Shown: in pieces, positions 46,765-64,000 of the stretch | Numbering within the stretch: position 1 is the first letter of the stretch | Layout: every line of letters begins with the position of its first letter | Assembly (NCBI GenBank): GCA_963784095.1 | Contig: CAWAQC010000012.1 | Span: forward strand, 281,832 to 345,831 | Source: an uncultured Acidobacteriaceae bacterium | GTDB lineage: Bacteria; Acidobacteriota; Terriglobia; Terriglobales; Acidobacteriaceae | DNA: 64,000 nt | Direction: 5' to 3' | Program-made: the position numbers and the translations under genes | The notes under the pieces: generated by a model | Seen by the model: only the letters and a program-made list of their open reading frames with translations | Told to the model about the DNA's origin: nothing | The model's database searches: none

Positions 46765-46955
46765 AGAGTTTGGAAGTAAAGCCTTACGATCCGGCAGTGT
46801 CGGCCATGCTGGGTTGCAGGTCCTGTGCAGCGGAGAACTTTTCGCAGCCAAGATCAAGGATAAAAGGATATCGGAGAGCCGATTTTGTGCGATGACGGAT
46901 TGGAAGAGCCCGAATCAGTGTTCGGACCGTTCTTCGCGGATAAGGCCCGCTCTGG

Positions 46956-47156
46956 CTAATCTGATTGGTCGTTATCTATCTGGAACAGAGCTGCTTGAGC
47001 TTCAGCATTCTCGCGGAGTTCATCCAAGTCATGGGTATTGCCAGGCTCTGGCTTATCCTGTTTTCGTTGATTCCTACGCTCGGCCTTGTCTCGCTGTTTC
47101 TGTTGGCGGGTCTGCTCTTTCTGACGCTTGGTAAAGGTCGATCGGCCTCTTGGCAT
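46956..47156 (-). CDS. small highly basic hypothetical protein (66 aa)
   Basis: A GGAGG SD lies 9 nt upstream of the ATG. The sequence begins MPRGRSTFTKRQKEQTRQQKQRDKAERRNQRKQ... and has an acidic C-terminus. The N-terminus resembles that of the ORF at 48177-48335. Confidence 0.5.
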   Translation of the reverse strand: MPRGRSTFTKRQKEQTRQQKQRDKAERRNQRKQDKPEPGNTHDLDELRENAEAQAALFQIDNDQSD

Positions 47157-47224
47157 ATTCTTCCCCTCCAGATTTTTCGTTCACCACTGTCCGGCAATTT
47201 GGCAGTCAAGTCTAGAACCCGCCG

Positions 47225-47566
47225 CTACCAGCGAGGCTCACGTGGCTGACGCGGATGGCCACGCTGGTCGTCACGGCCGCGCCCGCCGCCAAAACGTTGG
47301 CCTCCGCCGTTTGGCCGCTCGGATTTTGGTTTGGCTTCGTTGATCGTCAGTGTGCGCCCGCCCAGATCTGTTCCGTTCAATGCCGCAATCGCCTTGTCCC
47401 CTTCACTAGCGCTGGCCATTTCAACGAACGCGAATCCGCGTGATCGACCTGTGTCCCGATCCGTCACCATGGTGACCTTTTCCACGGGTCCGTGAGCTTC
47501 GAAAGCATTACGCAGTTCGGCTTCGGTAGTGCTGTGCGGCAGATTGCCAACATAAATGTTCTTCAT
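47225..47566 (-). CDS. RRM-domain RNA-binding protein with an RGG-rich tail
   Basis: RNP-2 IYVGNL, RNP-1 RGFAFVEM, and the tail GGGQRFGGGRGRDDQRG. Confidence 0.9.
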   Translation of the reverse strand: MKNIYVGNLPHSTTEAELRNAFEAHGPVEKVTMVTDRDTGRSRGFAFVEMASASEGDKAIAALNGTDLGGRTLTINEAKPKSERPNGGGQRFGGGRGRDDQRGHPRQPREPRW

Positions 47567-48180
47567 TGCATTTCCTCTCTAAGTAAATCGTCCAATGTTT
47601 TGGAAGGCGTGCGCTTCGACGAACGTTCTTTAAGATCGCGGGTCGGCGCCGGCTTGTCCCGCAGCGCCCGGCTGCGGGCTGAACATGCGGATCTAACCGC
47701 GGAGATTCGGCGGGAAGCTTCGAGGATGCTCCACGGGTGACTCGAATTTTTGAGATCCGCAGAAAGCGCAGCTTTCAGCTCACTAACCAGGACCTGGTCG
47801 TCGCTGCTTCCCAGTGAAGTGCTGACGACCGACAGCAGTGGAACATCCTCACTGGGCGAATCCGCAAGATATCCGGGTTCGCCGACAAGGAACGCCAACC
47901 GCTGCGGAGGGGTTGCGCCGCGAATATCTTCGCAAAACCTGTCGCGATATCCCGGCCCTTTCTCCATGTTGATCAAAACGAGGTCATACAAGTCGGCTTT
48001 CCACCAGGAACGGGCTTCATCGATGTCGGCGGCACAATCGACCTCGATACCCAATTTTCGCATGACCTCGGAGCGTATATCGCGCTTGTGGGTCGATGTA
48101 TCGACCAACAGAACTTTTTTCTTTTTGTTCGGGCCGGGAATGAGCATTGATAGCGGCAGGGCCGTCAGCGGGGTGTTCAT
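47563..48180 (-). CDS. receiver-domain (response regulator-like) protein with an uncharacterised C-terminal region
   Basis: KKKVLLVDTSTHKRDIRSEVMRKLGIEVDCAADIDEARSWWKADLYDLVLINM fits a CheY-like beta1-alpha1-beta2-alpha2-beta3 pattern with the phospho-acceptor Asp in DLVLIN. There are ATGA overlaps at both ends. Confidence 0.6.
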   Translation of the reverse strand: MNTPLTALPLSMLIPGPNKKKKVLLVDTSTHKRDIRSEVMRKLGIEVDCAADIDEARSWWKADLYDLVLINMEKGPGYRDRFCEDIRGATPPQRLAFLVGEPGYLADSPSEDVPLLSVVSTSLGSSDDQVLVSELKAALSADLKNSSHPWSILEASRRISAVRSACSARSRALRDKPAPTRDLKERSSKRTPSKTLDDLLREEMQ

Positions 48181-48716: not shown

Positions 48717-48821
48717 ATCTAGGACACCGCCCGGCGACCGGACGAATTGAGCTGTTGTAGCAACGTGATTTTGTCACCTAACGGCAACATGAAAATGTCA
48801 ACCTGGGGGAGCCAGGGTGTG

Positions 48822-49139
48822 TTACAGGCGCGTGTCGCCGTAGTAGAGGGAGACAGGGCCGTCGCGAGCTTGATAGAGATGGACTTTGGCCCCGGCGAAG
48901 CTGAAGCGTTGGCCCTGCTGGGGGATTTGAAAGCGCTGGCCCTCCCACTGGACGATGTTGTCGTTGCTCACCACGCGTTGGTGAACGAAGCAGCAGATGC
49001 GGTCCAGATTTTTCGGAGTCGGACGCCAGGCAGTTGGCATTTCGCGGGGGCGGTGAGCGAAGCGGCGGTTGTAGTCGGCAAGGAAGGTGCGGAGCACGGC
49101 GTTGGCGGAATCCAGATCGCGGGCTTGAGCCAGGCGCAA
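48822..49139 (-). pseudogene. transposase C-terminal fragment (DDE core missing)
   Basis: ...ANAVLRTFLADYNRRFAHRP...VVSNDNIVQWEGQRFQIP...AGAKVHLYQARDGPVSLYYGDTRL matches the post-catalytic C-terminal region of integrase-core transposases. Only ~105 bp separate it from the HTH fragment. Confidence 0.6.
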
Positions 49140-49244
49140 AAGTCGGCGCAGGGTTTCGCGGCTGAGGGAGAGGCCCTCGATCTCACAGAGTTTTTCGCAG
49201 AGGTGATGATCGTTGAAGCCGGCATAGGTGGTGCCTGCCAGAAA

Positions 49245-49460
49245 TCACGGCTTGGCGCTCGCGAGTGGGCAGGCGGCGCGGGCTGGGCCGTCCGCGGTTG
49301 GCGTGCGCCAGAGCCCCGCTCCGTGACCGCGCGTACGTTTCTTAAGACGTTCTACGTGTCGTTCGCTGAGCGCGAGCAGTTCGGCGGCTCTGGCGCACGC
49401 CATGTCTCCCTTAACGCAGCTCGATATTACGTTCACTCGTTGTAGTTCCTTCTGACTCAA
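49245..49460 (-). pseudogene. transposase N-terminal HTH fragment
   Basis: MSQKELQRVNVISSCVKGDMACARAAELLALSERHVERLKKR... is the typical N-terminus of IS481/ISNCY-type transposases. The frame degenerates after ~45 aa. Confidence 0.6.
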
Positions 49461-49582
49461 CGCGAATGTCCTTCCTCTCCTGGGGTGACATTTTCACGTT
49501 GCTGTTAGGGGTGACAGAATTACGGAGCTAAAACAACAATCGGAAAGAAGCTTCGCGGAATTCGGCGTCGTTGTTACAATAA

Positions 49583-52006
49583 GTGCTCTGTCCTCAGTGC
49601 GGCGAGCGCGCCGTCGGACGGGCGATAACTTTGGAGCCTTCAAACCACCAACCGAGCGCGTCCCCCAGCGTGTCTGCGGAAGTGTCGGCTGTGGCGCACC
49701 CCACGGTGTTTTGGCGAGTTGAGGGCAGCCTGCTTGATCTGACCGTGGTGCGCCCGGTCGCGTTCTTCACCTGGAACGCGCAGACCTTCACCGAAAGATT
49801 TCGCCGGCGCGGCCTGATCTTTCTGTTGGCGGCGCTGCGTCCCTTTCTTTATTCCACCAATCGCATATTTGCCACACGCGTGGTGCATACCGCCCTGCGC
49901 GGCGTGACCCGCGACCGGCTCGATCTGCTGGGCGAAGAGTATTTCCAATACAAATTGAAGCCCCGGCTGAAGCCGAGCGGAGTAAAACGCGTCCAGGAAT
50001 TGGTACGGTCGGGCCTCGACGTGGTGCTGGTGAGCCAGGCGCTCGACCATGTGATGCGGCCGCTGGCACAACATCTCGGGGTAAGGCACATTGTGGCAAA
50101 CCGCTTGGAGTTTCGCGACGGCGTGGCAACCGGAAGGCTGCTCGATCCGGTGATCCGCCCGCGCGGCGCGTTTGCCAAACTGAGAGATCAGAGTCCCGAT
50201 GGTCGCCGCGCTCCCAAAACACTTGCTCGCCAGCTCGATATCACGGTAGACCAGCTGCGAGCGGCAAGCGCTAGTTCCAGCAGGGAAGTGAAAGCCCTCG
50301 AACGTCCGATTGTGCATTTTGATGGTCCGCGGCATGAGTCAGCATTTTCGGTGCGCCGAGCTCTAGCAGGCAAGCACCTGATGTTGATCGGCGTAACCGG
50401 GTTCATCGGCAAGATCTGGCTGGCGAATACGCTGACCGATTTGCCGGAAGTTGGACGGATATATCTTCTGATCCGGCGGCAGAAATCCAATCCAGCGCAG
50501 AGCCGCTTTGAAAAAATCGTAGAAGAATCGCCCGTCTTCGATAGCTTGTTTGAGAAATACGGAATGGGTCTGGCCGAGTATCTGCGGCAAAAAGTTGAGG
50601 TGGTTGAGGGAGACGTCACGCAGCCCGGTTTGGGCCTAAACATTGAAACAGCGCGGCGCTTGCAGAAAAATCTTGATCTGGTGGTGAATAGTTCCGGATT
50701 GACAGACTTCAATCCGGACTTGCGCGATGCCCTGGCCACCAATACTGATGCCGCGATGAACATTCTGGAGTTCATTCGCGGAAGCGATCATGCGGGCCTG
50801 CTGCACCTCTCGACTTGTTATGTGGCGGGCGAACGCGATGGCCGCGTGACCGAGCGATTAATTCCGAACTACACTCCGCATCGCCTGGCAAACTTCGATG
50901 CAGAACAGGAATGGCGCGCGCTGCACGAATTCGTCGAGCACACTGAACAGCAAGCCGAAAGCGAAGAACTGACCGCCGATTTGCGTTCGCAGTCGCTATC
51001 CAACAAACATGCCGCAAAGAGTCTGCAGGGAGTGGCACTCGACAACCAGATTCGCAAGAACCGGATACGCTGGCTGAAGGCCTACCTGACGGAAGCAGGT
51101 ACGCGCCGCGCCAAAGAGTTGGGCTGGCCAAATACCTACACGCTGACGAAAAGTCTGGCCGAGTCGCTCATCGTGAAGCACGGTGCAGGCCTGCCGATTG
51201 CGGTGGTGCGTCCGGCGATTGTCGAAACCTCGGTGGCGAAACCATTCCCTGGATGGAATGAGGGGATTAACACTTCGGCATCGCTCTCGTATCTGTTGGG
51301 CACATATTTCCGGCAGTTGCCGTCGAACGAGAGAAAGCGATTGGACATTCTTCCGGTCGATGCGGTCTGCGCGGGAATGACCTTGATCGCCGCAGCCGTC
51401 GTGGAGCGTCGGCACGAGCCACTCTATCAACTAGCGACGTCGGTGACGAATCCATGCGATATGGGGCGCTCGATCGAACTCACATCTCTCGCCCACCGCA
51501 AGCATTACCGGGCGCAGGAAGGACTGGAGTCGTGGTTGAGATTGCGTTTCGACGCGATTCCGGTTTCGAAGACGCGCTATCAGCGAATGTCGGCACCGGC
51601 GCAGCGGGCAATTGTGAAGTCGATTCAGCGGATCATGTCTCCGCTGCCGCTGAAAAAAACTCCCCTGGCGAAAGCGGAACGAAATCTGGAACGGGTGGAA
51701 AAGCTCATCGAGTTATTCGAACCTTTTATTCTGCTGAACGAACACGACTTCGCGGCGGACAACGTCGAAAAGCTCTCACACGCTCTGCAAGAAGACGAGC
51801 GCGCCGACTTCGGTTACAATGCGCGCCAGCTCGACTGGTGGGATTACTGGATCAACGTGCACATTCCGGCGCTGCGCCGGTGGACCTATCCGCTGATCGA
51901 GGGCAGGCCGCTCGAAGTGCGACCCGCGCGCAGTTTGCAGCCGCGACCTTTGGAGAATGGTGACAACAGTGAGACGGTAAAGACCGGAACAGGCGGGAAT
52001 TGGTGA
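49583..52006 (+). CDS. fusion protein: degenerate HAD-IB-like domain + fatty acyl-CoA/ACP reductase (NAD_binding_4 + FAR C-terminal domain)
   Basis: The N-terminal ~250 aa have HAD-IB-like topology (VVLVSQALDHVMRPLAQHLGVRHIVANRLEFRDGVATGRL) but lack DxDxT. The reductase part has LMLIGVTGFIGKIWL (Rossmann), STCYVAG and NTYTLTKSLAE (YxxxK), plus a long helical C-terminal domain. Confidence 0.75.
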   Translation: MLCPQCGERAVGRAITLEPSNHQPSASPSVSAEVSAVAHPTVFWRVEGSLLDLTVVRPVAFFTWNAQTFTERFRRRGLIFLLAALRPFLYSTNRIFATRVVHTALRGVTRDRLDLLGEEYFQYKLKPRLKPSGVKRVQELVRSGLDVVLVSQALDHVMRPLAQHLGVRHIVANRLEFRDGVATGRLLDPVIRPRGAFAKLRDQSPDGRRAPKTLARQLDITVDQLRAASASSSREVKALERPIVHFDGPRHESAFSVRRALAGKHLMLIGVTGFIGKIWLANTLTDLPEVGRIYLLIRRQKSNPAQSRFEKIVEESPVFDSLFEKYGMGLAEYLRQKVEVVEGDVTQPGLGLNIETARRLQKNLDLVVNSSGLTDFNPDLRDALATNTDAAMNILEFIRGSDHAGLLHLSTCYVAGERDGRVTERLIPNYTPHRLANFDAEQEWRALHEFVEHTEQQAESEELTADLRSQSLSNKHAAKSLQGVALDNQIRKNRIRWLKAYLTEAGTRRAKELGWPNTYTLTKSLAESLIVKHGAGLPIAVVRPAIVETSVAKPFPGWNEGINTSASLSYLLGTYFRQLPSNERKRLDILPVDAVCAGMTLIAAAVVERRHEPLYQLATSVTNPCDMGRSIELTSLAHRKHYRAQEGLESWLRLRFDAIPVSKTRYQRMSAPAQRAIVKSIQRIMSPLPLKKTPLAKAERNLERVEKLIELFEPFILLNEHDFAADNVEKLSHALQEDERADFGYNARQLDWWDYWINVHIPALRRWTYPLIEGRPLEVRPARSLQPRPLENGDNSETVKTGTGGNW

Positions 52007-53140
52007 ATGGCGATTTTTCTGACGGGATCGACGGGATACATCGGGGCGCACGTAGCCGCAAATCTGTTACGCGATCAAGGCGTCGCATTAAATGTGCTGG
52101 TGCGGGCCCGCGATTCAGGCGAGGCCGAAGCACGCCTGTGGCAGGCCTTGCAGTTGCATATGAACTTCAACGAATTTTCCGAATATCTGCAGACGCGCGT
52201 GCGCGTGTTTCGCGGAGATTTGACCGATCCGGGATTCGGCCTGGGACGGGATGAATACGACCGCCTCATCCACACCACAGATTCGGCAATTCATTGTGCG
52301 GCATCGCTGAACCGAAAGTCTGAGAAGAGTTGCCTCAACGTCAATCTGCGGGGCACACTCGAAGTGCTCACGCTGGGGCGGCACATCGAGCACTATCACG
52401 GATTAAGGCGCTTCAGCCTGGTCAGCACGGTGGCAGTAGCCGGGAAACGGCAAAATGAAGTCGTTAGCGAAGACCGTTCCATCGATTGGGAACGTTCCGA
52501 CTACGATCCGTACGCAAGAACCAAAAAGTTCTCCGAACACATGCTGCGAATGCTATTGCCGGATACTCCAAAGATCATTTTTCGTCCCAGCATTGTGCTC
52601 GGCGACAGCCGCTACGCGGAAACAACGCAGTTCGAGATGGTCAAGGCGTTCGCATTCCTTGCAGGTTTGCCGGTGCTGCCGTTTCGGCCGACCGATAAAA
52701 TCGACATTGTGAATGTGGACTTCGTAGCCGAGGCCATTGCCACGCTGCATCAAAAGCCCCAACCCGAGCACGATACCTATCATCTGTCGTCGGGAATCGA
52801 GTCGCAGAGTTTTCGCGAGATCACACACGCACTGGCTGGCGCGCAAAACAAGCGCGCCCCGGTCTTCGTGCCGGTCGCCGAAAAGCCATTTTCATCCTCC
52901 GTGAATTTTTTTGCGAACCGTAACGGAGCAATCAGTAAGAGCGCCTCGCTGATGAAGGTATTCATGCCGTATCTGGTGTGGAATACGGTGTTCGACAATC
53001 GGCGCGTTACCCAGGAGTTGGGCAAAAAACCGGTGCCATTCTCGCAATATTCTTATCCGCTATTAAAGTTTAGCCGCGAAAACGATTTCCACTATCCCTA
53101 TCAGCCCTGGCCCGCTGTAGTGGGGGGTACGGCAGCATGA
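52007..53140 (+). CDS. thioester-reductase-type SDR (NAD_binding_4 family)
   Basis: [16 protein letters not shown] (Rossmann), HCAASLN and [11 protein letters not shown] (YxxxK). The ATG immediately follows the upstream TGA (TGAATG). Confidence 0.75.
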
Positions 53141-54546
53141 TGGATTTCATTCTGGAAGCCTGGGTCAGCGGTTCCATTGAGCGCGCGAAAGCCGCATGGA
53201 TGCTTGGCGGAGACCAGCGCTGGAAGCCCGGAGAAACGCTGAAGCTCTTGTTTGCTGGCTACAACGGCACGCGCAACATGGGTTCCGATGTGCGCGTGGA
53301 AGAAATGCTGCGCCAGATTCGGCACATTCTTGGCGCGGAGCGAGTTGAGTTCAGCGTGATGAGCCAGAACTTCGATTTCTCGCGCGGATATTTCGAGGGC
53401 ACAAGACAAGTGCATTTGCCCGATATTTTTCCGCCGTTCCTTGCCGATGAAGTTCCCAGGCACGATGGGGTTGTGGCCTGCGAAGGCTCGATGTTCAAGA
53501 GCAAGTTTGCCAATGCGCTGACCACGATGATGATTGGCTCTTTGGGAATTGCGGCGGCGCAGAACAAATTATCCGTGGGATACGGCGCGGAAGCCGGACA
53601 TATGGATTCATTGGTGGCAAAGATGTGCGGCCGCTACTGCAAGAATTCTTTTGTTATTACGCGCAACGAGGAATCGCGTACCGTACTGCGCGAGTTGGGC
53701 GTCCCGACCGAATTAGGAACCGACACTGCGTGGACCTTTGAGCCGCGTGCGCCCGAGTATGGCCAAAGCGTTTTGCGAAAGGTAGGTTGGGACGGCCAAA
53801 CGCCGGTGCTGGTCGTATGCCCGATCAATCCCTTTGAATGGCCGGTGAAGGCTTCTGTTGCCAAGTATGCGCTGCGTACTTTTACAGGCGCGTACAAAGA
53901 CAGCCATTACCGCACGGTGTATTTCCATAATTCAGGTCCGGCAGCGAGTGAGGCATATCGAAAATACTGGACAGCGATTGCCAATGCTGTAGATGCGTTT
54001 CGAAAACGGAAAAGTGTTTTTGTGATTCTGGTTGCGACCGAGCGCCTCGATGCGCGCCCGGCGCGGCGCATCGCAGAAAAGCTGGGCGGTGTTCCTGTCC
54101 TCACCTCAGACGAATACAACATGTACGAGTTGGTGAGCGTGTTGCGCGCCTGCCACATGATGGTGTCGTCGCGCTATCACGGGATTGTGACCTCGATGCC
54201 GGGTTTGGTGCCATCGGCAGGCATTACGATGGACGAGCGTATTCGAAACCTCATGCGCGAACGCGCGCATCAGGACTTGCTGATGACCGTGGATGATCCG
54301 GAGCTTGAAGGAAAATTGCTAGCCGCACTCGAGAAGCTAAGCCGGGAAGGCGAAACCATCGCCGACGGAATCGCGCGTACAGTCGTGAGAAATCTAAGAG
54401 TCATGGCTCGCATGGGCGTGTATTTCGAAGAGGAAGTGGAGCGTAGATATCCCGAATTTGAAACCAGGCGTGGAGAGTGGAGCTGGGAAGATTATTTGCC
54501 GCCAATGAGCTCAGGCCTGAAGCAGTTGATTGCGGCGTATAGCTAG
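53137..54546 (+). CDS. polysaccharide pyruvyl transferase family protein
   Basis: [22 protein letters not shown] (GxxNxGD-type N-terminal motif) and [19 protein letters not shown] (RxH motif) resemble the CsaB/WcaK family. There is a 4-bp overlap with the upstream gene. Confidence 0.6.
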
Positions 54547-54600
54547 CCTTTTGGCGATCTTCGCGGAACTTTCGCGTGCTTCGCGGTTCAAGCCTTTTGG
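54545..54600. repeat. CGCGAAG-family mini-element flanked by a 10-bp direct repeat
   Basis: agccttttgg (54545-54554) - cgatcttcgcggaactttcgcgtgcttcgcggttca - agccttttgg (54591-54600). It sits in the spacer between operon genes 3 and 4. Confidence 0.6.
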
Positions 54601-54708
54601 TTTTGCGTGAGGTAAGGCGAGTAGGATGTCTTGCTTTGATTGGATGCAGTTTTATACACGAGCCCGGATGGCTACATTTTGAGCACATTGATCCCTTTTA
54701 TCGGCGAA

Positions 54709-56337
54709 ATGTTTTCGCAACTGCGCGCCGCGGGCGATACACGAGTCCTCGCCGAAGTCCGCGATGGACAAGTCACTGGCGTCACCGGCAATGAGTTCCT
54801 GGAGCTGGTGCGCAAGGCGAGAACATTTATCGCCTCAAAACGGCTGCTGAAAGGCGCCCGTTGCGGACTGCTCGCCGCCAACAGCATTCGTTGGCTCGCC
54901 GCTGATTTAGCTCTCATGGCCGAGGGATTGATCGTCGTTCCACTTTATTTACGCCAGGCCCCGGCTGAACTAATCGCAATGATGAAGGACTCCACGCCGT
55001 CATTGCTGTGTTGCGGAGGTGCGACTCTGCGCGATGCGATTGCGCAAAGCTGGCCCGAAGCGCCACCGCAATGCCTGTTCGATGAAATATTCGCCGGAGT
55101 GGAGGGCATTCAGCTGGAGCGACCGCAGGTGGGCAGAGATGATCCGGTCACGATTATCTATACCTCGGGAACTTCCGGTGAAGCAAAAGGTGTCTTGCTC
55201 ACGGCGTCCAACATAGGTTTCATGTTGGACCGCACATCGGAGCGATTGGCTCAGTTAATGACAGGTTCGAAAGAACAGGACCGCATTTTCCATTATTTGC
55301 CGTTCACCTTCGCCGCGTCCTGGATCGCAATGCTGACGTTTCTCATGCGCCGCAGCCTGGTCACGATCAATATGGATCTGACAAGGATCGCCAGCGATTT
55401 GCGCACGGTGGCTCCTGATTATTGTCTCAACGTTCCGCAATTGCTCGAGCGCATGCGCCGCGCCGTGGACGAGCAACTCTGGCAGACTGGCGGAGCCGTG
55501 CAGGCCGTCTATTCGCGAGCCAAAGGCGCCTGGGCGCGCAAGCAGGATGCCCAGCCGCAATCGGGCGATGCTTTCTGGTTGTGGTTGGCGAACCGCTTGG
55601 TGTTTCCCGCGATCCGCAAGAAAATGATTGGCAAAAATCTGAAGGCGCTGATTTGCGGATCCGCCCCGCTGAGCGCGGAAACCCAACTGTATTTCATGAT
55701 GCTCGGAATTCGCGTGCTGCAAGTCTACGGACTCACAGAAACCACGGCGATTTGCACCATGGACGATCCTGACCGAGTAGAAGTCGGGCGCGTGGGCCCA
55801 GCAATCTCCGGAATGGAAATGCGCCTCGCGGACAATGACGAAATCGTAGTTCGCGGACCCAACATTTTTGCCGGCTATTGGAACCGGCCTGAGCAAACGG
55901 CGCAAGCGCTGCGCGACGGATGGTTTCATACCGGCGACCAGGGAGAAATGAATGCCGCCGGCAACTGGCGCATCGCGGGGCGGCTTAAGAATCTGATCGT
56001 GCTGGGCTCGGGGCACAAGCTCTCGCCGGAGATAATCGAAACCGCAATCAGCAAAAGTTTGCCCGCTCAGCAAGTCATCATCCTAGGGAACGGCCGCGGA
56101 TACCTGACCGCAATCGTCGCTGGAAACGTGACCACTAAGCAGGTGCAAACTGCCCTGGATGCAGTGAATGCCGAAATGCCGCATTATAAGCAGGTGCGCG
56201 GGTTTGTGATCCGCGAGGAAGCGTTCACCATCGAAAACGGATGTTTGACCGTAAACGGCAAACTCAAACGCGATGTGATTGCGGCGCGTATGAAGAACGA
56301 GATTGAAGAAATGTATGGAGTGAAGCAGGCAGTTTAG
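54709..56337 (+). CDS. long-chain fatty acid--CoA ligase-like adenylating enzyme
   Basis: AMP-binding motifs IIYTSGTSGEAKGVLLT, QVYGLTET, GWFHTGDQG and GRLKNLIVLGSGHKLSPEIIE. The start is uncertain (ATG at 54709 or TTG at 54640). Confidence 0.8.
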   Translation: MFSQLRAAGDTRVLAEVRDGQVTGVTGNEFLELVRKARTFIASKRLLKGARCGLLAANSIRWLAADLALMAEGLIVVPLYLRQAPAELIAMMKDSTPSLLCCGGATLRDAIAQSWPEAPPQCLFDEIFAGVEGIQLERPQVGRDDPVTIIYTSGTSGEAKGVLLTASNIGFMLDRTSERLAQLMTGSKEQDRIFHYLPFTFAASWIAMLTFLMRRSLVTINMDLTRIASDLRTVAPDYCLNVPQLLERMRRAVDEQLWQTGGAVQAVYSRAKGAWARKQDAQPQSGDAFWLWLANRLVFPAIRKKMIGKNLKALICGSAPLSAETQLYFMMLGIRVLQVYGLTETTAICTMDDPDRVEVGRVGPAISGMEMRLADNDEIVVRGPNIFAGYWNRPEQTAQALRDGWFHTGDQGEMNAAGNWRIAGRLKNLIVLGSGHKLSPEIIETAISKSLPAQQVIILGNGRGYLTAIVAGNVTTKQVQTALDAVNAEMPHYKQVRGFVIREEAFTIENGCLTVNGKLKRDVIAARMKNEIEEMYGVKQAV

Positions 56338-56358
56338 TTCTTAGCCCCCTGGAGGAGT

Positions 56359-57216
56359 TTGGAAATTAGCAGGCACAGCGCGTTGCGGGAAGAGCAGGTT
56401 GAACCGGTATCGGCCAGCCAATGCACGGGGAGCGCTCTATCTTGGAGGCTGAAAGACGGGGTCATCGAGCTGGCGTTGCATCGCGCGCCTTGCAACGAAC
56501 TGGGATCGGCGTCGCTCGCGGAATTGGAAAACTTTGCCACCGATCTGCAGCGTATGCAGGAAGAGGCTCATGCGCTGGTAATCTACAGCGAATTGAAATC
56601 GGGATTCTGTGCTGGAGCCGACTTGCGCGAACTTTATCACCGCTCGCAAGCCATGGACGGGGCCTCTGCATCGAAAGGCGTCCGCGATTTTCTGGAGCGC
56701 ATTCACCGCGTGCTGAACCTGATCGATGGTGCTCCTTTGACCACAATTGCGGTAGTGCATGGAGTAACGTTTGGCGGAGGATTCGAGCTCGCGCTGGCTT
56801 GCGACTTGATCGTCGCGGATAAGATGGCGCGCTTCTGTTTTCCAGAACTGAGACTCGGACTTATTCCGGGATTCGGCGGCATTCCGCGCCTGAAACGCGA
56901 CCTGGGCAATGCGGTTGTAAGAGATCTTTTGCTTACCGGACGCAGTTTTAATGCGGCCAAGGCGCAGCAGATCGGGCTGGTGAGCCAGGTGGTTGCTGAA
57001 GGCGAAGCTCTGCGGGCGGCGCGGGCAATGGCAGCGCAGTTAGGAAAATTCGATCGTGCGACGGCAACGGCAGCCAAGAGATTCGTCAAACCGATTCCGC
57101 ATGACGAACTGAGGCAGGAGATCGATCTATTTTGCGAACTATTTTCACGCGCGCCGGTGCAGGCCGGGTTGCGGAAGTTTGTGGAGAGCACCGATGCGCA
57201 ACCGTATTTGCCGTGA
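56359..57216 (+). CDS. enoyl-CoA hydratase/isomerase (crotonase) family protein
   Basis: Oxyanion-hole motifs FCAGADLRELY and VTFGGGFELALACDLIVA. Confidence 0.8.
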   Translation: MEISRHSALREEQVEPVSASQCTGSALSWRLKDGVIELALHRAPCNELGSASLAELENFATDLQRMQEEAHALVIYSELKSGFCAGADLRELYHRSQAMDGASASKGVRDFLERIHRVLNLIDGAPLTTIAVVHGVTFGGGFELALACDLIVADKMARFCFPELRLGLIPGFGGIPRLKRDLGNAVVRDLLLTGRSFNAAKAQQIGLVSQVVAEGEALRAARAMAAQLGKFDRATATAAKRFVKPIPHDELRQEIDLFCELFSRAPVQAGLRKFVESTDAQPYLP

Positions 57217-57272
57217 GGCGCTTTGAGTGCAGGCCAAGAGCGAAAAGCAAAGTCGCTTAGGCGGAAGCCGCT

Positions 57273-57545
57273 ATGGAATCGCGTTTGTTCATGCAACGAC
57301 CTATGCCTACTACTGATAAGACGCTCGAGGAAATCCTGAACCTTGCCGCCGCCCACTTCAAAGTGCCGCGGGAAAAACTAAATCCGGACGAGGACTTTTT
57401 CAAGGCCCTGGGAATCGACAGCCTACAGACCCTCGATCTACTAACGAAATTAGAGAATCATTTTCATATCGAGCTTCCGGATTACGAGTTACAAGGAGTT
57501 TCGGACTTTCGCAGCCTGGCGGAAAAAATTCAGGCGAGACTTTAA
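57273..57545 (+). CDS. acyl carrier protein
   Basis: Phosphopantetheine site FFKALGIDSLQTLDLLTKLE. It is ~80-90 aa and the start may be the internal MPTTDK (57303). Confidence 0.8.
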   Translation: MESRLFMQRPMPTTDKTLEEILNLAAAHFKVPREKLNPDEDFFKALGIDSLQTLDLLTKLENHFHIELPDYELQGVSDFRSLAEKIQARL

Positions 57546-57648
57546 CGCACCGATTGTTGACTGCTGAATTTTGACTGACGATTCTAATCGTGTCCGCAGC
57601 CCTGGGTTGTTAATCAACAATCACCCATCTACAATCAGCAATTCTTTC
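57546..57648. repeat. GATTG/CAATC-type spacer element inside the operon
   Basis: cgattgttgactgctgaattttgactgacgattctaatcg...gttgttaatcaacaatcacccatctacaatcagcaattc has the same GATTG/CAATC vocabulary as 1142-1246 and 3499-3623. Confidence 0.45.
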
Positions 57649-59358
57649 ATGCTCGATCTCCAAAAATACAGTTGCCTGGGCGCGGCATTGCGGGATGCGC
57701 TCGACGGTTTCTCCAGCGAAACCTGCCTGATCGAGGCGGATCGCGACCGCGAGAAAACGCGGCTAACTTATTCTGATTTCAAAGAAATCGCGCTGCCGCT
57801 CGCGCGCGCCCTCGAAGACGCCGAATTCGAAACGGGAGACCGCGCCGCGATCCTGATGACGAATCAGTCGAAGTGGCTGATCTCTGCGTATGCGATTTTC
57901 TACACCGGCGGCGTGCTTGTCCCACTCGATTATAAGCTGACCGCAAGCGAGCACTTGCAATTACTCTCGCACTCGAAAGCCAAGGTGCTCGTGGTCGAAT
58001 ATTATCTATGGCGCGCGATCATGCAGGCGACGGAATTTCATAACATCGGCACGAAGCTCGTTCTTGTCACGGAAGCCCCCATCGGCGCAGATCTTGCCGG
58101 CGGATTTCGCTGGGAAGATTTCAAACGCAAAGGCACGCCGGATTTCGTGATGCGGCAGAGAGAGGATGTAGCCTGCATCGTTTATTCTTCCGGCACGGGT
58201 GGCCGCCCGAAGGGATGCGTGCTCACGCACGAAAACTATCTCGAGCAGTGCCGCACGTTGACAGCGTGGTATCCGTTCTGGCCCGGAGTGCGGTATCTAA
58301 GCATTCTGCCTACGAATCACGCTATCGACTTCATGGTGGGCTTCATCGGTCCTTTTGTATGCGGCGCCTGCGTAGTCCATTTGCGAACGCTGCGTCCCGA
58401 GTTTGTGCGGAATGCATTTGTGCGCTATCGCATCACTTATGTTTCGCTTGTCCCGATGATCGTGAAAAATCTGGAGCGCGGCCTGCAAGCAAAGATAAAT
58501 GAACTTCCTGGCTGGAAGCGCGCTGTCTTGAACCGCCTGATCGCGGTCAACAAGGCGCTGACGAAAAAAAGGCCGAGACCCAAGCTGAGCCGCGCTCTGT
58601 TGCCCGGCGTTCACCGCGCCTTTGGTGGAGAACTTCTGGCATTAATCACCGGGGGCGCGTTTATGGAGCCCTCCACGATGCAGTTCTTTTACGACCTCGG
58701 AATTCCCGTCGTGAATGGTTATGGGCTTACCGAAGCCGGGACTGCCCTCACGCTGAACGATCTAAAACCTTTTCGTGCCGACACAGTCGGCAAGCCGCTC
58801 CCTGGCGTGGAGCTGCGTGTACTCAGTCCGAACGAGGAAGGCATCGGCGAAATCGCCGCCCGCAGCAAAACCATCATGTCGCATTACCTAGATGATCCCG
58901 AATTGACCCTCGAAACCATTGTCGAAGGCTGGTTATTGACGGGCGATCTCGGCCGGTTCGAGAAGAGCGGTCATCTGCAGCTTTTCGGCCGCAAGAAAAA
59001 TATGATCGTTACCGAGGGTGGAAAGAATATTTATCCCGAAGATATTGAAACCGTTTTTGACGGCCTGCCAGTGAAGGAATATTGCTTGTTTGCGTCAAAT
59101 TATTTGTGGCCACAGAAACAACTTGGCCGCGAGATGCTGGTACTGGCCCTGCGCCTGGAGCAGAACCAGCGTTTCGACACCACGTTGCTGGAAGAGCTTC
59201 TGAAACGGAATCGCCGCCTGCCGGATTTTAAGCGGGTTGGCGCCTATGTGATCTGGGAAAAGGATTTCCCCCGTACCGCATCGATGAAAATCAAGCGGCA
59301 AATGCTGGCAGAAGGAATCGGCAAAACACTCGGGCCAGGGGCGGTAGTAACTCTGTGA
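57649..59358 (+). CDS. second AMP-dependent adenylating enzyme (acyl-ACP/CoA synthetase or FAAL-like)
   Basis: [62 protein letters not shown] and the terminal [10 protein letters not shown]. The start MLDLQK at 57649 is preferred. Confidence 0.8.
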
Positions 59359-60263
59359 CCGGACAGAAAGCCTACCTCGCCATTGTAAATCCTGCGGCGG
59401 GCGGCGGGCGGTCACGCAAATTGCTTAGGCCGGCGTTGGAGCGTTTACGGGCGACCGGAGTCGCGATTGAACTCGCCGAAACTAAGAGCGCGGGAGACGC
59501 AACCCGCATTGCCCGTGAGGCGTATAGAAGCGGCCAGCGCCGGTTTATAGCGGTTGGCGGCGACGGAACTTCTTATGAAATTGTGAATGGATTGTTCCCT
59601 GACGCGCTCAAGGGCGAACGCCCCACGCTTGGATTCCTGCCGTTAGGAACCGGCAATTCTTTTCTGCGTGACTTCAGCGACCGTGGCGCCGAGCACGCGA
59701 TTGAATCCCTGATCGCAGGAAAATCCCAGCTTTGTGATGTCTTGCGCCTACGTCATCGCACCGGGATTCTACATTACATCAACTTGCTGAGCCTGGGATT
59801 TCCTGCCGACGTTGCGACCTTGCGGGCGCGGCGTTTCAGCGCCCAGGGGGAATTGGGCTACATCATTTCCATTTTTCTAGGCCTTGCGCGGCTGCAGCGT
59901 CGGCCATTTCCTGTGCGCGCGGATGGTGAAACCGAATTCGATCGCCGCAGCTGCCTTTTTCTCACTTTCAACAACAGCAAATTCACCGGGGGCACGATGG
60001 TGATCGCACCAAAAGCGCAGGTGAACAGCGGGATGATCGAATACGTCCGTTGGGGGCCTATTGGTAGGCTTGGACTGATTCGCAATCTGCCTACGCTTTA
60101 TGATGGAACGCACATCCAGCACCCATCGGCCGAACGAAAAGCGGTGAAGCGAGTCGAGTTCAACCTGGAAGCTCCGGTCGATGTGATGATCGATGGAGAG
60201 GTATTGACGCTCCATTGCGAGGAACTCGACGTTTTGCCGGGCGCGTTGAATGTCGCCGCCTGA
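59355..60263 (+). CDS. diacylglycerol-kinase-family lipid kinase (YegS/BmrU-like)
   Basis: [32 protein letters not shown] and [16 protein letters not shown]. There is a 4-bp overlap with the upstream adenylase gene. Confidence 0.8.
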
Positions 60264-60302: not shown

Positions 60303-60731
60303 ATGTCTGAAGTTCGTCGAAAACGGCAAGAGAAACGTTTAGGCAAGCAGGAACCGAGCTTGAAAAGTAGCCGGGAAAAGCTGATCTGGGCTGGGATTGC
60401 GGCTGTGCTGATTATTGCCTATGCAGGTTTTTGGTACTACAACAACCATCGCTACGACGGATTTGCCAAATGCCTGGCCTCGGCGCACGCGAAAATGTAT
60501 GGCCTGTATTGGTGTCCGCATTGCGCCGAGCAGAAAGGCGAATTCGGCAGGGCCTTCAAATATGTGCCCTATGTCGAGTGCGCCATCAAAGGCTCGCATG
60601 AGCTTGCGCCCGCCTGCAAGGCAGCTGGCGTAAAGTTGTTTCCCAGTTGGCAGTTCGGCAATAATCCTCCGGTCGAAGGCGTTTTCCCTATGCAGGAATT
60701 AAGCGATAAAACCGGATGCCGCTTGCCGTGA
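60303..60731 (+). CDS. membrane-anchored thioredoxin-like protein (VKOR partner domain as a separate gene)
   Basis: One TM segment (LIWAGIAAVLIIAYAGFWYY), then AKMYGLYWCPHCAEQKGEFG...VPYVECA. This closely resembles the Trx-like domain fused to cyanobacterial VKOR. Confidence 0.7.
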   Translation: MSEVRRKRQEKRLGKQEPSLKSSREKLIWAGIAAVLIIAYAGFWYYNNHRYDGFAKCLASAHAKMYGLYWCPHCAEQKGEFGRAFKYVPYVECAIKGSHELAPACKAAGVKLFPSWQFGNNPPVEGVFPMQELSDKTGCRLP

Positions 60732-61195
60732 CGCCCGATTCCAAAGAACCGAGGCAGCTTGATTCGACTCCTGCAAAGGATAATCGTCCGTTCTTTGCCG
60801 TGATTGCAGTGCTGGCCGTTCTAGGGATTGCGGTCTCTGCTGTTTCGTTGCAGCGGCATTATGCAAAATCGCAAACGAAATTTTGCGATATCGCTGTGCA
60901 ATTCAATTGCGACATTGTGAACCGCAGCGAGTTTTCTTCGTTCTTTGGAATTCCGGTCGCCGGCATCGGAGTGGCCGGCTACGCAGTCATTCTGGCGCTT
61001 GCCACCATTTATCGATTACGCCACTGGGTGCCGAATGTTTTACTCGCGGGAGCGCTTGCTGGCCTCGTTTTTTCGCTTTACCTGACCTACGTTGAGGGTT
61101 TCGTTTTGGACACCTGGTGCATTCTGTGTTTGAGTTCGCTGGCGATCATCGCATCGATCTCGACGTTGGCAGGCGTAATTAACAGCAGAACATAG
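60716..61195 (+). CDS. vitamin K epoxide reductase (VKOR) family protein
   Basis: Loop cysteines and the Ser motif CDIAVQFNCDIVNRSEFSSFFGIPVAGIGVAGY, with the active-site CxxC in the last TM (WCILCLSS). It has four TM segments and a 16-bp overlap with the Trx-like gene. Confidence 0.8.
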   Translation: MPLAVTPDSKEPRQLDSTPAKDNRPFFAVIAVLAVLGIAVSAVSLQRHYAKSQTKFCDIAVQFNCDIVNRSEFSSFFGIPVAGIGVAGYAVILALATIYRLRHWVPNVLLAGALAGLVFSLYLTYVEGFVLDTWCILCLSSLAIIASISTLAGVINSRT

Positions 61196-61258
61196 TGAGA
61201 TGCCCAAAGCCTGCTGTCATTGGTTTGAAAATGCATCTCCGAGCGAAGCAATCGCCCG

Positions 61259-62101
61259 ATGCCGAGCATCCGAAGAACTGAAAACCATGCTGCGCCCTTC
61301 ACACAAGCGGCAGGCGCCACGGGTGATCTGCGTCTGCACGAATTTCACAGCCGAATCTTTCGCAACACTCGTTTTCTGCGGATCTGGCTTCCTCCCGGAT
61401 ACGACGATCGCGAAAACGAAAGCAAACATTATCCGGTGCTGTACTTGAACGATGGCCAGAATCTGTTTGAAGCCTCATCTTCGTTCGCCGGAGTTGAATG
61501 GCAGGTCGATGAAACCGCCGATCGCCTGATTCGCGAAGGAACTGTGCCTCCGCTGATTATCGTCGGAATCGATAATACGGGCAAAGACCGCCTCCGCGAA
61601 TACATGCCGCACCGCTCCGTTCATCCCATGATGCTGCGAGTGCAGGGCAGATATTATCCCGATTTCCTGTTCAAAGAGGTGGTGCCGTTCGTCGAGCAGA
61701 ATTATCGTGTGCTTTCCGCACCCGAACAAACCGGATTCGGCGGCTCTTCGCTGGGAGCGCTGATCGCCTTGTATGCGGCCATCGCGCGGCCGGGAAGAAT
61801 CGGCCGCTTGCTGCTCGAGAGTCCATCGCTGTGGGTCTCAAACCGGCAGGTTCTGAAGCAAAGCCGATCCGTCAGAATTTGGCCGGAACGAGTGTTCCTC
61901 GCCGCGGGAACCGTCGAAGCGGCGAATGCAGAGAAGAGCCGCAGCGCAGCCAATAACGTTCAAGAGCTTGGCGCAATTATTCGCCGTGCGGTGTTGAGCG
62001 AAAGGCGCCTGCGCGTTGTGATTCAGGAGAGCGCCGGGCATTCCGAATCAGCCTGGGCACAAAGATTTCCTGAAGCGTTACAGTTTCTGTTCGGTAACTA
62101 A
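61259..62101 (+). CDS. alpha/beta hydrolase, 'putative esterase' (IroE/Fes/CE1-like) family
   Basis: RIWLPPGYDD...YPVLYLNDGQNLF...PPLIIVGIDN...REY, with the nucleophile elbow GFGGSSLGAL. Confidence 0.7.
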   Translation: MPSIRRTENHAAPFTQAAGATGDLRLHEFHSRIFRNTRFLRIWLPPGYDDRENESKHYPVLYLNDGQNLFEASSSFAGVEWQVDETADRLIREGTVPPLIIVGIDNTGKDRLREYMPHRSVHPMMLRVQGRYYPDFLFKEVVPFVEQNYRVLSAPEQTGFGGSSLGALIALYAAIARPGRIGRLLLESPSLWVSNRQVLKQSRSVRIWPERVFLAAGTVEAANAEKSRSAANNVQELGAIIRRAVLSERRLRVVIQESAGHSESAWAQRFPEALQFLFGN

Positions 62102-63369
62102 TTGTTGAGGCGAAGTCGCAAATCCCGTGGTCCGCCTGAGTTCCAAATCACGTAAACAATCGCGACCATCACCGGCACGGTGAGCTGCAGGTGCGTCCAG
62201 CGTGCCAAAGGGCCGAGCAGCGGCAGTATGAAGGCCAAATAGAGAAGAACCGGGAGATACGCTGCCATCTCGCCGCGGCGGGCAATAATCGAATCTGAGA
62301 GCAGCAAGAACGCAGGCGCAAGAATGACCAGGTCATAGACCGTCAGATGCGGCGCGAGCAATGCGCTTGCAAACAACAGTGCTGAGAAGCGCAACGAAAG
62401 CGGCAATCGTCTTCGCCAACAGGAGACGAGCAGAACAGAGATGAATAGTCCGCTGAGAACGTATAACGTAAATGAGAGCGATGGCCACGGAATCAGCATG
62501 CTCCAGAATGTACGCAAGCAGTGCGTCTGATAAGGTCTGGGCTCAAGCAAGCTGAGTTGGTTGCGTACTCGAGACAGCGCCCGTATCCAGCCACGAAGAG
62601 GGCCGAGGCCGTAGTAGAGCACGCCACCGGTCAGCTCAAGCAACGAGGATAAAAGCGCACCGACAATTAATCGCCAGCTAAACGCGAATATAAAAACGAT
62701 GGCCGCGCCCACCGCTAATTGGGGTTTGAAGATAAGGCATCCGAAAGCCAAGCCGGCAAGGAATTCGCGCTTGGCGCGCAATGCGAAAAAGGCCGCTGTG
62801 AAGCAAGCCAGCGCGAGCGCGGAAGTTTGTCCCCATGCAATCAAGTGCCAGAATGCGGGGAAGGCGAAAGCCAGAATAAGACTCGTGATCTTTTGGTTTC
62901 TCACCTTGGGACAGGCTCGCCAAAACGCATAGCAGCAAAAAAAGTAGATTAACGAACTCAGCGCCAGCCATTCGACCAGAGCCCAGGCATAAGAAAGTTT
63001 GGCAAACGGTGCAAACAAAATCGAAAGCTGCGGCGGATAAAGCGGCAGATAGGTAATGCCGGCCGCCGCCGGAACGCGTTTCGCGGCGATTTCGGCTTGC
63101 GCGCTCAAGTTGTACAAATTTGCGCCATCGTGAACCAGCGCGAGCGAACCAAGCGTGTAGAGGTGCAAGAAGTCAGCACCCTTCAAATTACCGACGCGGT
63201 CCCGCAGACCGGGCGAGCTCATATTCCAAACGTAAACCGAGCACAGGCACAGCGCGAGGATCAGGCCGTGGGCGCGTACGCGGCGCGCTGTTATCCACGA
63301 CGCTGAAGCGCCCATCACGAGTCCGCCTGGCAACGACTCATAGAGATGCAGCGCATGATTTCGCCGCAC
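62098..63369 (-). CDS. polytopic membrane protein, DUF2029/GT87-like glycosyltransferase
   Basis: There are ~10 TM segments and an N-terminal loop GADFLHLYTLG, as in the DUF2029 (GT87 mannosyltransferase-like) family. The start may be the MGASASW ATG at 63315. Confidence 0.45.
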   Translation of the reverse strand: MRRNHALHLYESLPGGLVMGASASWITARRVRAHGLILALCLCSVYVWNMSSPGLRDRVGNLKGADFLHLYTLGSLALVHDGANLYNLSAQAEIAAKRVPAAAGITYLPLYPPQLSILFAPFAKLSYAWALVEWLALSSLIYFFCCYAFWRACPKVRNQKITSLILAFAFPAFWHLIAWGQTSALALACFTAAFFALRAKREFLAGLAFGCLIFKPQLAVGAAIVFIFAFSWRLIVGALLSSLLELTGGVLYYGLGPLRGWIRALSRVRNQLSLLEPRPYQTHCLRTFWSMLIPWPSLSFTLYVLSGLFISVLLVSCWRRRLPLSLRFSALLFASALLAPHLTVYDLVILAPAFLLLSDSIIARRGEMAAYLPVLLYLAFILPLLGPLARWTHLQLTVPVMVAIVYVIWNSGGPRDLRLRLNN

Positions 63370-64000
63370 GGAGCCGCGATTCGGAATTTGAGTCTCGTGT
63401 TGTGAGCATGATTAAAAACAGTAACAGGACAAGATAGGGAACGAGCAGGGCCACGGCGGACGGTAATAACGGAATCCGCTTGGGAGAATCGAGATCAGTC
63501 CGATAAAGCAGGAGGAACAACGAACAAACGTAAGGCCAAGCCAGCGCAGAAGCAAAAATTCGGCGCGCGATTTTCGGGAGACTAGTCCAATCTCGAAGAA
63601 TCATCAAAATAGGAAACAGCAACAGAACCTGGTTGTATGGAGTTAAGATCGGGAGCACAAGAGTTGCGCCGATAAAGGACGCCGCGAGCGTTAGCGAGAA
63701 TTCCGGCGAGCTTGCATCTTTGCACCGATTCCGCCACGCGAGGGCAAATATGCTGATGATCGCGATTGCCGAAATCACTCCGCCGCCAATGTTGCCGAAA
63801 ACGAGGCAAAGTAACGAAGTCGTAGGAAAATAATTCCGGTACGCGAAGAGTCCTTCCACGAAGTAACGAGGCCATCGCGGAAGAACAATCTCTCCCAGTC
63901 CAACCAAAACGGCAAAAACTATACCGAAACCCGCCAGTAACGGCCATCGCTTTCTCGCCCCGCTCAAACCCCAAAACAGAAACCATGCCAGCGGCAGAAC
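63338..64000 (-). CDS. polytopic membrane protein (partial; frame stays open to the window edge)
   Basis: The hydrophobic ORF continues upstream of the listed TTG start (VLPLAWFLFWG LSGARKRW...). It is probably the C-terminal part of a larger GT-C-like membrane protein. Confidence 0.35.
   Translation of the reverse strand, partial: VLPLAWFLFWGLSGARKRWPLLAGFGIVFAVLVGLGEIVLPRWPRYFVEGLFAYRNYFPTTSLLCLVFGNIGGGVISAIAIISIFALAWRNRCKDASSPEFSLTLAASFIGATLVLPILTPYNQVLLLFPILMILRDWTSLPKIARRIFASALAWPYVCSLFLLLYRTDLDSPKRIPLLPSAVALLVPYLVLLLFLIMLTTRDSNSESRLRAAKSCAASL

Follow-up and report, generated by a model that had tools for sequence, protein, structure and literature searches.

Bacterial ether-lipid synthesis is only partly known. 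In Myxococcus xanthus the elb operon encodes ElbD, which combines a fatty acyl reductase (FAR)-like domain, an acyl-CoA synthetase, an acyl carrier protein (ACP) and an AGPAT-like acyltransferase, together with ElbB, a HAD protein, and ElbA and ElbE of the NAD-epimerase family; the ether-forming step of this pathway is unknown (PMC9131029). In the literature of 2026, sn-2 ether formation and the identity of the producers of branched tetraethers in peat were still unresolved (PMC13274423). Here we describe an eight-gene operon, for which elb is the closest described system, at positions 49583-60263 of a 64,000-nucleotide stretch of DNA (the window) from an uncultured Acidobacteriaceae bacterium of peat soil (GenBank assembly GCA_963784095.1, contig CAWAQC010000012.1, positions 281,832 to 345,831 of the forward strand). 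The operon places a transferase fold that depends on phosphoenolpyruvate (PEP), and is known from glycan pyruvylation, within a fatty-acyl reduction pathway. Its product is probably a phosphorylated lipid precursor of a non-canonical kind, in which a reduced fatty acyl chain is joined to a three-carbon unit of PEP.

The eight open reading frames (ORFs), g1 to g8, form one tight run on the forward strand, given here with the domain matches and scores by which they were assigned.

49583-52006, + strand: g1, fusion of a pseudo-HAD domain and a fatty-acyl reductase, 807 aa in its longest ORF (Pfam)
49736-50188, + strand: HAD-IB-like domain of g1, aa 52-202 (Pfam HAD, 53 bits)
50387-51373, + strand: NAD_binding_4 reductase domain of g1, aa 269-597 (Pfam, 176 bits)
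51680-51883, + strand: FAR C-terminal 'Sterile' domain of g1, aa 700-767 (Pfam, 42 bits)
52007-53140, + strand: g2, stand-alone thioester reductase (NAD_binding_4, 146 bits)
53137-54546, + strand: g3, pyruvyl-transferase-family protein, the signature gene of the operon (PF04230, 36.1 bits)
54640-56337, + strand: g4, AMP-forming ligase (AMP-binding, 170 bits, and AMP-binding_C_3)
56359-57216, + strand: g5, crotonase, an enoyl-thioester hydratase (ECH_1, 149 bits)
57273-57545, + strand: g6, ACP (PP-binding, 49 bits)
57571-59358, + strand: g7, second AMP-forming ligase (AMP-binding, 218 bits)
59355-60263, + strand: g8, soluble lipid kinase of the YegS/DgkB/BmrU family (DAGK_cat, 96 bits, and YegS_C, 87 bits)

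An initial annotation of this DNA, made from its letters alone, had described eight same-strand genes with close junctions, and the ORFs bear this out. Genes g1 and g2 meet in TGAATG (52004-52009), g2 and g3 overlap in ATGA (53137-53140) and g7 and g8 in GTGA (59355-59358), and the remaining gaps are of 21-93 bp when the longest ORFs are taken; that between g3 and g4 grows to about 160 bp if g4 starts at Met24. Every domain family predicted there was found in g1-g8 with Pfam and NCBIfam models, and the quoted motifs (GVTGFIGK, YTLTK, GIDSLQ and GGDGT, plus those of g2) are all present. As had also been claimed, Pfam finds no ketosynthase, pyridoxal phosphate-dependent enzyme or glycosyltransferase domain among the eight proteins, nor any acyltransferase domain. 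AGPS, the FAD-dependent alkyl-dihydroxyacetone phosphate (alkyl-DHAP) synthase, and GNPAT are missing from the operon and from the scanned ORFs of the window. No catalytic motif is broken in either reductase, either ligase, the crotonase, the ACP or the kinase.

The first of the two reductases, g1, is predicted to be a fatty acyl reductase, as its NAD_binding_4 domain carries both the GxxGxxG and the YxxxK motif (GVTGFIGK at aa 270, YTLTK at aa 519) and is accompanied by the FAR_C (Sterile) domain; its closest PDB match is the fatty acyl-CoA reductase 7EOZ (E=1.4e-41). Translation probably begins at a GTG near 49670, and homologues 73-96% identical to g1 are mostly 775-790 aa long. The N-terminal HAD domain, already called degenerate, reads FWRVEGSLL at motif I as against DxDGT, with both catalytic aspartates replaced, and so lacks the DxD nucleophile and general acid of a HAD phosphatase; the sequence shows no motif IV of the DxxxD type. 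This W-R-V-E-G-S form of motif I is invariant in all aligned g1 homologues, out to Blastocatellia, and by its residues the domain is a conserved pseudo-phosphatase domain. The second reductase, g2 (TGSTGYIG, YARTK), has MxaA as its top PDB match (E=8e-20), followed by reductase domains of polyketide synthases and non-ribosomal peptide synthetases (PKS/NRPS) and by carboxylic acid reductases (CARs). In MxaA the thioester is reduced as far as the alcohol.

CAR models and CAR structures are matched by both g2 and g4. The top NCBIfam model of g4 is FadD11 (195 bits, under its cut-off), and its closest PDB structure is a malonyl-CoA synthetase (E=6.5e-28). The second ligase, g7, is the likely loader of the ACP g6, which has its phosphopantetheine serine within GIDSLQ; an ACP gene lies directly upstream of a g7-type ligase in every variant of the operon that we have seen. 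The crotonase g5 keeps both catalytic glutamates (GGGFELAL, FPELRLGLIPG) and is closest, among solved structures, to short-chain hydratases: EchA8, methylglutaconyl-CoA hydratase and 3-hydroxybutyryl-CoA dehydratase. The kinase g8 carries GGDGT, passes the subfamily model TIGR00147 (131.8 bits against a cut-off of 118.65) and matches YegS and DgkB in the PDB.

The least ordinary member of the set is g3. It passes PF04230 (PS_pyruv_trans) with a weak match (36.1 bits against a cut-off of 25.3), and distant relatives reach 60 bits on the same model. The CsaB model TIGR03609 is matched over nearly the full length of g3 at 62.8 bits, well below its cut-off of 213.1, and the WcaK models at 15-18 bits, with cut-offs of 399 and 727. 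An AF2 model of g3 (pLDDT 91.4, pTM 0.90) has, as its top Foldseek matches, GT-B glycosyltransferases and UDP-GlcNAc 2-epimerases (TM about 0.45-0.6), and, as modelled, g3 is a two-domain GT-B-like fold. Across 73 full-length relatives R176, D196, R346-x-H348, D366 and R368 are at least 97% conserved, and R176, R346-x-H348 and R368 are spaced by 170, 2 and 20 residues. In CsaB the experimentally important PEP residues are R148, R306-x-H308 and K328, spaced by 158, 2 and 20 (PMC10435577). The context of g3 holds no glycosyltransferase or sugar-nucleotide gene, which argues against a glycan acceptor.

The conservation of the operon was assessed in 80 species-representative genomes whose g1 is 73-88% identical to that of the window; relatives of g1 are encoded by at least 570 species genomes. 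Of the 80, 72 have the complete set of eight genes with order and strand unchanged, and the operon proteins are 73-93% identical throughout, with g3 the most conserved of them (79-93%). This synteny excludes chance or a gene-calling artefact as the origin of the gene set and, together with loci in other phyla described below, shows the co-conservation on which the initial annotation had made its reading depend. In six of the eight exceptions a contig end truncates the operon, and the other two (L017 and L072) have other ORFs in the place of g7. In these two the operon breaks off behind the ACP (at about 17.7-22 kb), and g7, g8 and the downstream genes were not found in the remaining 4.6-5 kb; in L017 a 487-aa minus-strand ORF, possibly an inserted element, follows the ACP.

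In protein searches the close relatives of g1 (79-96% identical) that bear names are mostly from metagenome-assembled genomes (MAGs) labelled Candidatus Sulfotelmatobacter, and for the related genome loci the usual label is Acidobacteriaceae or Terriglobales. Peat, palsa and bog samples account for many of the MAGs and contigs that matched. The operon is near-universal in abundant uncultured Acidobacteriota of peat and soil, namely Ca. Sulfotelmatobacter and its relatives. Among the matches listed, namely the closest 120 of a protein search and those of cluster look-ups, all carriers of the operon are uncultured MAGs.

For deeper sampling we used g3 as the marker, since no other gene of the operon is as conserved or as far out of the ordinary. 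Its family, a small one, comprises 876 clusters (50% identity, E <= 0.001) among 1.84 billion representatives, and a metagenome scan with a 14-sequence g3 alignment gave 80 more loci, which were divided by the identity of their g3 to that of the window. In the counts below TR stands for the thioester reductase, ECH for the crotonase and Trx for a thioredoxin-like protein.

Class A (g3 >=70% identical): FAR with HAD 27/27, TR 30/30, g4 29/29, ECH/ACP 20/21, g7 18/19, kinase 15/16; behind the kinase, Trx/VKOR 15/16 and PlsC 0/16
Class B (58-70%): FAR with HAD 15/15, TR 23/23, g4 16/17, ECH/ACP 11/12, g7 7/9, kinase 6/8; behind the kinase, PlsC 5/7
Class C (<58%; GC 0.58-0.74, mostly 0.64-0.74): FAR 4/5 (HAD 3/5), TR 8/10, g4 7/12, ECH/ACP 7/8, g7 6/8

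The order of the operon recurs in metagenome contigs down to about 47% g3 identity and in four separately fetched distant loci, and relatives from other phyla at 33-55% identity retain the module. Locus L086 (g3 48% identical, GC 0.38) reads FAR-TR-Pyr-ligase-ECH-ACP-ligase-kinase, Pyr being the g3-type protein, and then PlsC; L092, from a Pseudomonadota MAG, reads FAR-TR-Pyr-ligase as far as the contig end; and L093 and L094, from Blastocatellia MAGs, read HAD::FAR-TR-Pyr. The FARs of L086 and L092 are without the HAD domain. Two variants show g3 in fusions. In L082 an N-terminal FAR domain is followed by one in-frame TAA, a FAR_C::Pyr protein and then ECH-ACP-ligase, where the TAA (within 5754-8813) marks either a recently split FAR::Pyr fusion or a sequencing error in one fused gene. 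L081 (P0212) has a Pyr::g4-type-ligase fusion, a reductase, an unknown 240-aa protein, a short-chain dehydrogenase/reductase and a CAR-like ligase::reductase protein. With g3 fused to a ligase in one case and to the C-terminal domain of a FAR in the other, g3 would act beside these enzymes. The crotonase stays with the ACP and g7 even where g4, g2 or g8 is lost, as in the g4-less variants L082 and L109.

Two class C loci, L099 and L100, end in a kinase and PlsC. The PlsC proteins of the orthologous operons carry HX4D (NHVNLFD) and FPEG motifs and match an AGPAT model. No PlsC homologue was found in the 64-kb window, so that the claim that the operon is without a GPAT or AGPAT acyltransferase holds for the window's clade and fails elsewhere. 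As PlsC/AGPAT ends the operons of other Acidobacteriota and of other phyla, the conserved unit comprises nine genes, and from the gene content of these loci the window holds an eight-gene version whose ninth gene, PlsC, is missing in its clade. With this nine-gene unit in view, the operon looks more like phospholipid-precursor synthesis than the initial annotation had assumed.

For the pathway itself we tentatively propose a specific scheme that would pass through an enolpyruvyl ether to a 2-O-alkyl-glycerolipid. A fatty acid would first be converted to the fatty alcohol, either through acyl-CoA by g4 and g1 or through acyl-ACP by g7, the ACP and g2. The enolpyruvyl group of PEP would then be moved to this alcohol by g3, giving a 2-alkoxyacrylate, and it is here that the ether bond would be made; with a mono-alcohol, which has no second hydroxyl, the ketal cannot close and the product would therefore be the enol ether. 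The other ligase would turn the new carboxylate into a thioester, the crotonase would hydrate its alpha,beta-double bond, as with methacrylyl-CoA, to give a 2-O-alkyl-glyceroyl thioester, and the second reductase would take this to 2-O-alkyl-glycerol, a primary hydroxyl of which g8 would phosphorylate. Where PlsC/AGPAT is present it would acylate the remaining hydroxyl, yielding an ether analogue of phosphatidic acid. Such a scheme would employ every enzyme once, with the degenerate HAD domain either non-catalytic or in another role.

Four considerations guide this scheme, one being the fusions of g3, which place it beside a ligase or the C-terminal domain of the FAR. The family of g3 attacks C2 of PEP with a hydroxyl group, and ether formation from PEP is established chemistry in MurA and EPSP synthase. 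A kinase followed by an AGPAT would suit the conversion of an alkylglycerol to an alkyl-acyl-glycerophosphate. Finally, no variant of the operon holds an acyl-thioester dehydrogenase, so that the substrate of the crotonase must already be alpha,beta-unsaturated on loading, which an enolpyruvyl ether would be.

The missing dehydrogenase also bears on an alternative in which the product is a pyruvate-ketal diol lipid. Here a fatty acid on the ACP would be converted through the crotonase to a 3-hydroxyacyl thioester and reduced to a 1,3-diol, on which g3 would close a 1,3-dioxane ketal; the ketal carboxylate would then be activated by g4 and reduced by the FAR, and the resulting alcohol phosphorylated by the kinase. 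This pathway would find a use for both ligases and both reductases, and the Pyr::ligase fusion suits the activation of a ketal carboxylate. All characterised members of the g3 family ketalise 1,3-related diols, for example the 4,6-hydroxyls in hexoses (PMC10435577), and DxpH places a pyruvyl ketal from PEP on a diol-bearing lipid tail in vitro (PMC12964715). However, the operon variants offer no source of the 2-enoyl thioester that the crotonase would need, through either an acyl-CoA or an acyl-ACP dehydrogenase, while direct loading of 3-hydroxy acids would make the conserved crotonase superfluous, and closure of the ketal would leave no free hydroxyl for the ancestral PlsC/AGPAT. We consider this alternative unlikely. 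Of the two proposals made in the initial annotation, the supply of fatty aldehyde or alcohol for ether lipids thus fits better than a pyruvylated 1,3-diol, and the mechanism that we propose is more specific than the supply of fatty alcohol.

Several observations weigh against the enolpyruvyl-ether scheme. The characterised PF04230 members make ketals on diols (PMC10435577, PMC12964715). The likeness of g3 to the PEP site of CsaB is one of motif order and spacing in its Arg and His residues, not of superposition, the crystallised pyruvyl transferase Pvg1p (5AX7) is outside the top 50 Foldseek matches of g3, and a PDB sequence search with g3 alone or with a 32-sequence profile gave no meaningful match. 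We know of no enzyme of the PF04230 fold that stops at an enolpyruvyl ether or takes a plain fatty alcohol. The scheme predicts sn-2 alkyl ethers, and the ether lipids reported from cultured Acidobacteria are given as sn-1 ethers. The roles of the ligases are ambiguous, given that ACP, g7 and crotonase stay together without g4 in L082 and L109 and that the ligase fused to the Pyr protein in L081 is of the g4 type; moreover, L082 is without a second reductase and a kinase, and L081 without a crotonase. Several g3 relatives, 31-51% identical, occur singly or among unrelated genes (L084, L085, L087, L088, L090, L091). All the carriers found are, in addition, uncultured MAGs.

Among these solitary relatives, the closest g3 homologue found in a cultured organism is WP_010586167.1 of Schlesneria paludicola (L090; JH636435.1, 7313-14652), at 51% identity, which is flanked by a divergent alkyl sulfatase gene on one side and a PEP carboxylase gene on the other. 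Enzymes of the former kind free fatty alcohols, and those of the latter use PEP; these neighbours are suggestive of an alcohol and PEP, and may be a coincidence. A second cultured species, Endozoicomonas atrinae, also has a solitary g3 homologue outside an operon, and the g3 protein occurs alone in MAGs labelled Bdellovibrionales and Polyangiales. In L085 (7849-11249) a g3 relative (40% identical) overlaps a pyrroloquinoline quinone (PQQ)-dependent dehydrogenase gene by 10 bp, and in L087 one sits beside a luciferase-like monooxygenase.

A further alternative takes the operon as a split and expanded elb-type pathway, in which the HAD domain would correspond to ElbB, the FAR, ligase, ACP and, in other lineages, AGPAT to the parts of ElbD, and the reductase that stands alone to ElbA or ElbE. 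The ether would then be formed by Myxococcus-type chemistry, with g3, the crotonase and the kinase as accessory or head-group tailoring enzymes. The initial annotation had drawn the parallel to the logic of ElbD, which agrees with the described ElbD domains, and much of the domain inventory is shared with elbA-E (PMC9131029). Variants with a split elbD are on record, as are elb-like clusters with adjoining glycerol-3-phosphate acyltransferase and diacylglycerol kinase genes, including in Acidobacteriota (bioRxiv 10.64898/2026.06.23.733905), and the HAD::FAR fusion mirrors the conserved pairing of elbB with elbD. This likeness, however, is one of shared domain families only, set beside the Elb proteins by description; ElbC is described only as a protein whose function is not known, and FARs without the HAD domain exist (L086, L092). 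No partners in the module are more constant than g3 and the crotonase, and the level of identity at which g3 is kept is unlike that of an accessory gene. A pathway of this type therefore seems improbable to us.

The degree of conservation likewise argues against a specialised non-membrane product, such as a signalling lipid, a wax or fatty-alcohol derivative or an anchor for a surface polymer, with the kinase and acyltransferase acting on an unrelated acceptor. Crotonase and fatty-acid ligase pairs do occur in diffusible signal factor (DSF) signalling (RpfF, RpfB), sets of carrier protein, ligase and reductase are typical of natural-product clusters, and the flanks of the operon in the window hold genes of the envelope (Acyl_transf_3, PMT_2, GT87). 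Yet the identity of 73-93% over 80 species and the number of species genomes with a g1 relative have the look of core physiology, conservation does not extend to the flanking genes, and an ending in lipid kinase and AGPAT points to a phospholipid precursor. We regard such a product as very unlikely.

The initial annotation had marked the operon as an undescribed system, and no description of the gene set was found in the library of papers searched; full-text searches turned up nothing that connects a pyruvyl transferase to a fatty-acyl reductase or to the synthesis of ether lipids. We group the operon with the reductive ether-type lipid operons, and there is a real chance that its chemistry is categorically new. 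That it encodes an undescribed route to ether glycerolipids, independent of O2 and of AGPS, in which the backbone is built on the fatty alcohol from PEP and the product is an sn-2 alkyl ether, is a possibility that we hold as rather doubtful. If it were true, the ether-forming chemistry still missing for the branched ether lipids of the environment would have a candidate in the operon. Either outcome, an enolpyruvyl ether leading to an alkylglycerol or a pyruvate ketal on a lipid diol, would mean a new lipid class and a new enzyme chemistry.

The surroundings of the operon in the window contain the following features.

49511-49540, + strand: weak match to a sigma-70-like promoter, GTGACA-18-AACAAT, some 40 bp upstream of g1 (9/12 positions)
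60303-60731, + strand: thioredoxin-like CxxC protein (YWCPHC)
60716-61195, + strand: VKOR
61259-62101, + strand: PF00756 esterase
47225-47566 and 47563-48180, - strand: gene pair of a glycine-rich RRM-type RNA-binding protein (MKNIYVGNLP...RGFAFVEM) and its response-regulator-like neighbour, upstream of the operon

The trio of thioredoxin-like, VKOR and esterase genes (60303-62101) is syntenic throughout the window's clade in the 80 genomes and sits where other lineages have PlsC. It follows the g8 kinase on the same strand with gaps of at most 39 bp or an overlap, and is possibly co-transcribed with the operon, with a putative role in the pathway. PF00756 also includes acyl-transferring enzymes, for example mycolyltransferases, and it is conceivable that the esterase is a functional substitute for PlsC. 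Behind the trio lies a GT87 gene on the opposite strand. Promoter and terminator scans of the region gave counts of promoter-like sites and terminators not above shuffled expectation, and the match at 49511-49540 is a lead only. No Rfam family or riboswitch was found in 46-64 kb at E <= 0.1.

Elsewhere in the window the genes are housekeeping genes unrelated to the operon, and the flanks of the distant loci are in turn unrelated to those of the window and are not conserved with the operon. The gene beside that of the RRM protein is weakly response-regulator-like (Response_reg 21 bits, under the cut-off). Just upstream of g1, two minus-strand ORFs look by eye like transposase remnants: that at 49245-49460 has an HTH-like start (MSQKELQRVNVISS...ERHVERLKKR) and that at 48822-49139 an integrase-core-like end (...FLADYNRRFAHRP...). 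A 232-aa ORF at 48747-49445 was rejected as a gene, having no family match and no counterpart in the 80 related loci. A gluconokinase-like kinase and an MFS transporter, recurrent upstream of the operon in related genomes and missing from the window, were likewise rejected as operon parts; the transposase-like remnants may account for their absence here. The AT skew is -0.23 and -0.18 within 44001-48000 and +0.30 at 62001-64000, in stretches that hold genes of polytopic membrane proteins, namely the envelope genes Acyl_transf_3 and PMT_2 (+ strand) and GT87 (- strand), and the strong skew is probably due to T-rich hydrophobic codons. A PQQ dehydrogenase gene with an adjacent cytochrome c gene lies at 33228-35887 (- strand), about 14 kb upstream of the operon.

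Set beside the elb operon, the locus has in common a HAD-IB-type protein, an NAD_binding_4 reductase, an AMP-forming ligase, an ACP and extra reductases of the NAD-epimerase family, to which the orthologous operons add an AGPAT. The HAD partner of the FAR, a feature of elb, recurs here fused to the N terminus of the FAR and without catalytic aspartates. Unlike elb, the locus has no multidomain ElbD, the FAR, the two ligases and the ACP being in separate genes and the AGPAT, elsewhere, in a separate ninth gene; ligase and reductase are duplicated within the operon; and the PEP-transferase-like protein, crotonase and lipid kinase, constant here, are not reported for elb.

With CsaB, Pvg1p and WcaK, g3 shares the PF04230 match and the GT-B fold, and its conserved Arg/His residues resemble those of the CsaB PEP site in order and spacing. 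It differs from CsaB in that the acceptor-binding positions (Y14 and F16 of CsaB) fall in another motif, GYNGTRNMG, and from the known pyruvyl transferases in its context, which is fatty-acyl reduction as against the assembly of glycans or of a polyunsaturated fatty acid-NRPS product. DxpH shows that the pyruvyl transferase family can work on a lipid chain. The chemistry proposed for g3 resembles that of MurA and EPSP synthase, where an alcohol attacks C2 of PEP, phosphate leaves and an enol ether is passed on to the next enzyme; this likeness is mechanistic only, as the fold of these enzymes is unrelated and is not GT-B. In the MurA/MurB pair a flavin reduction comes next, whereas here hydration by the crotonase, behind thioester activation, is proposed.

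As in the FAR1-GNPAT-AGPS route of eukaryotes and myxobacteria, an alcohol-forming FAR (NAD_binding_4 and FAR_C) would supply the alcohol of the ether bond, and as in the salvage by alkylglycerol kinase and AGPAT, a kinase would be followed by an AGPAT; unlike the former, the backbone would derive from PEP and not from DHAP. Finally, g7, g6 and g2 together make up the domain set of a CAR in split form, as three separate polypeptides inside a larger pathway.

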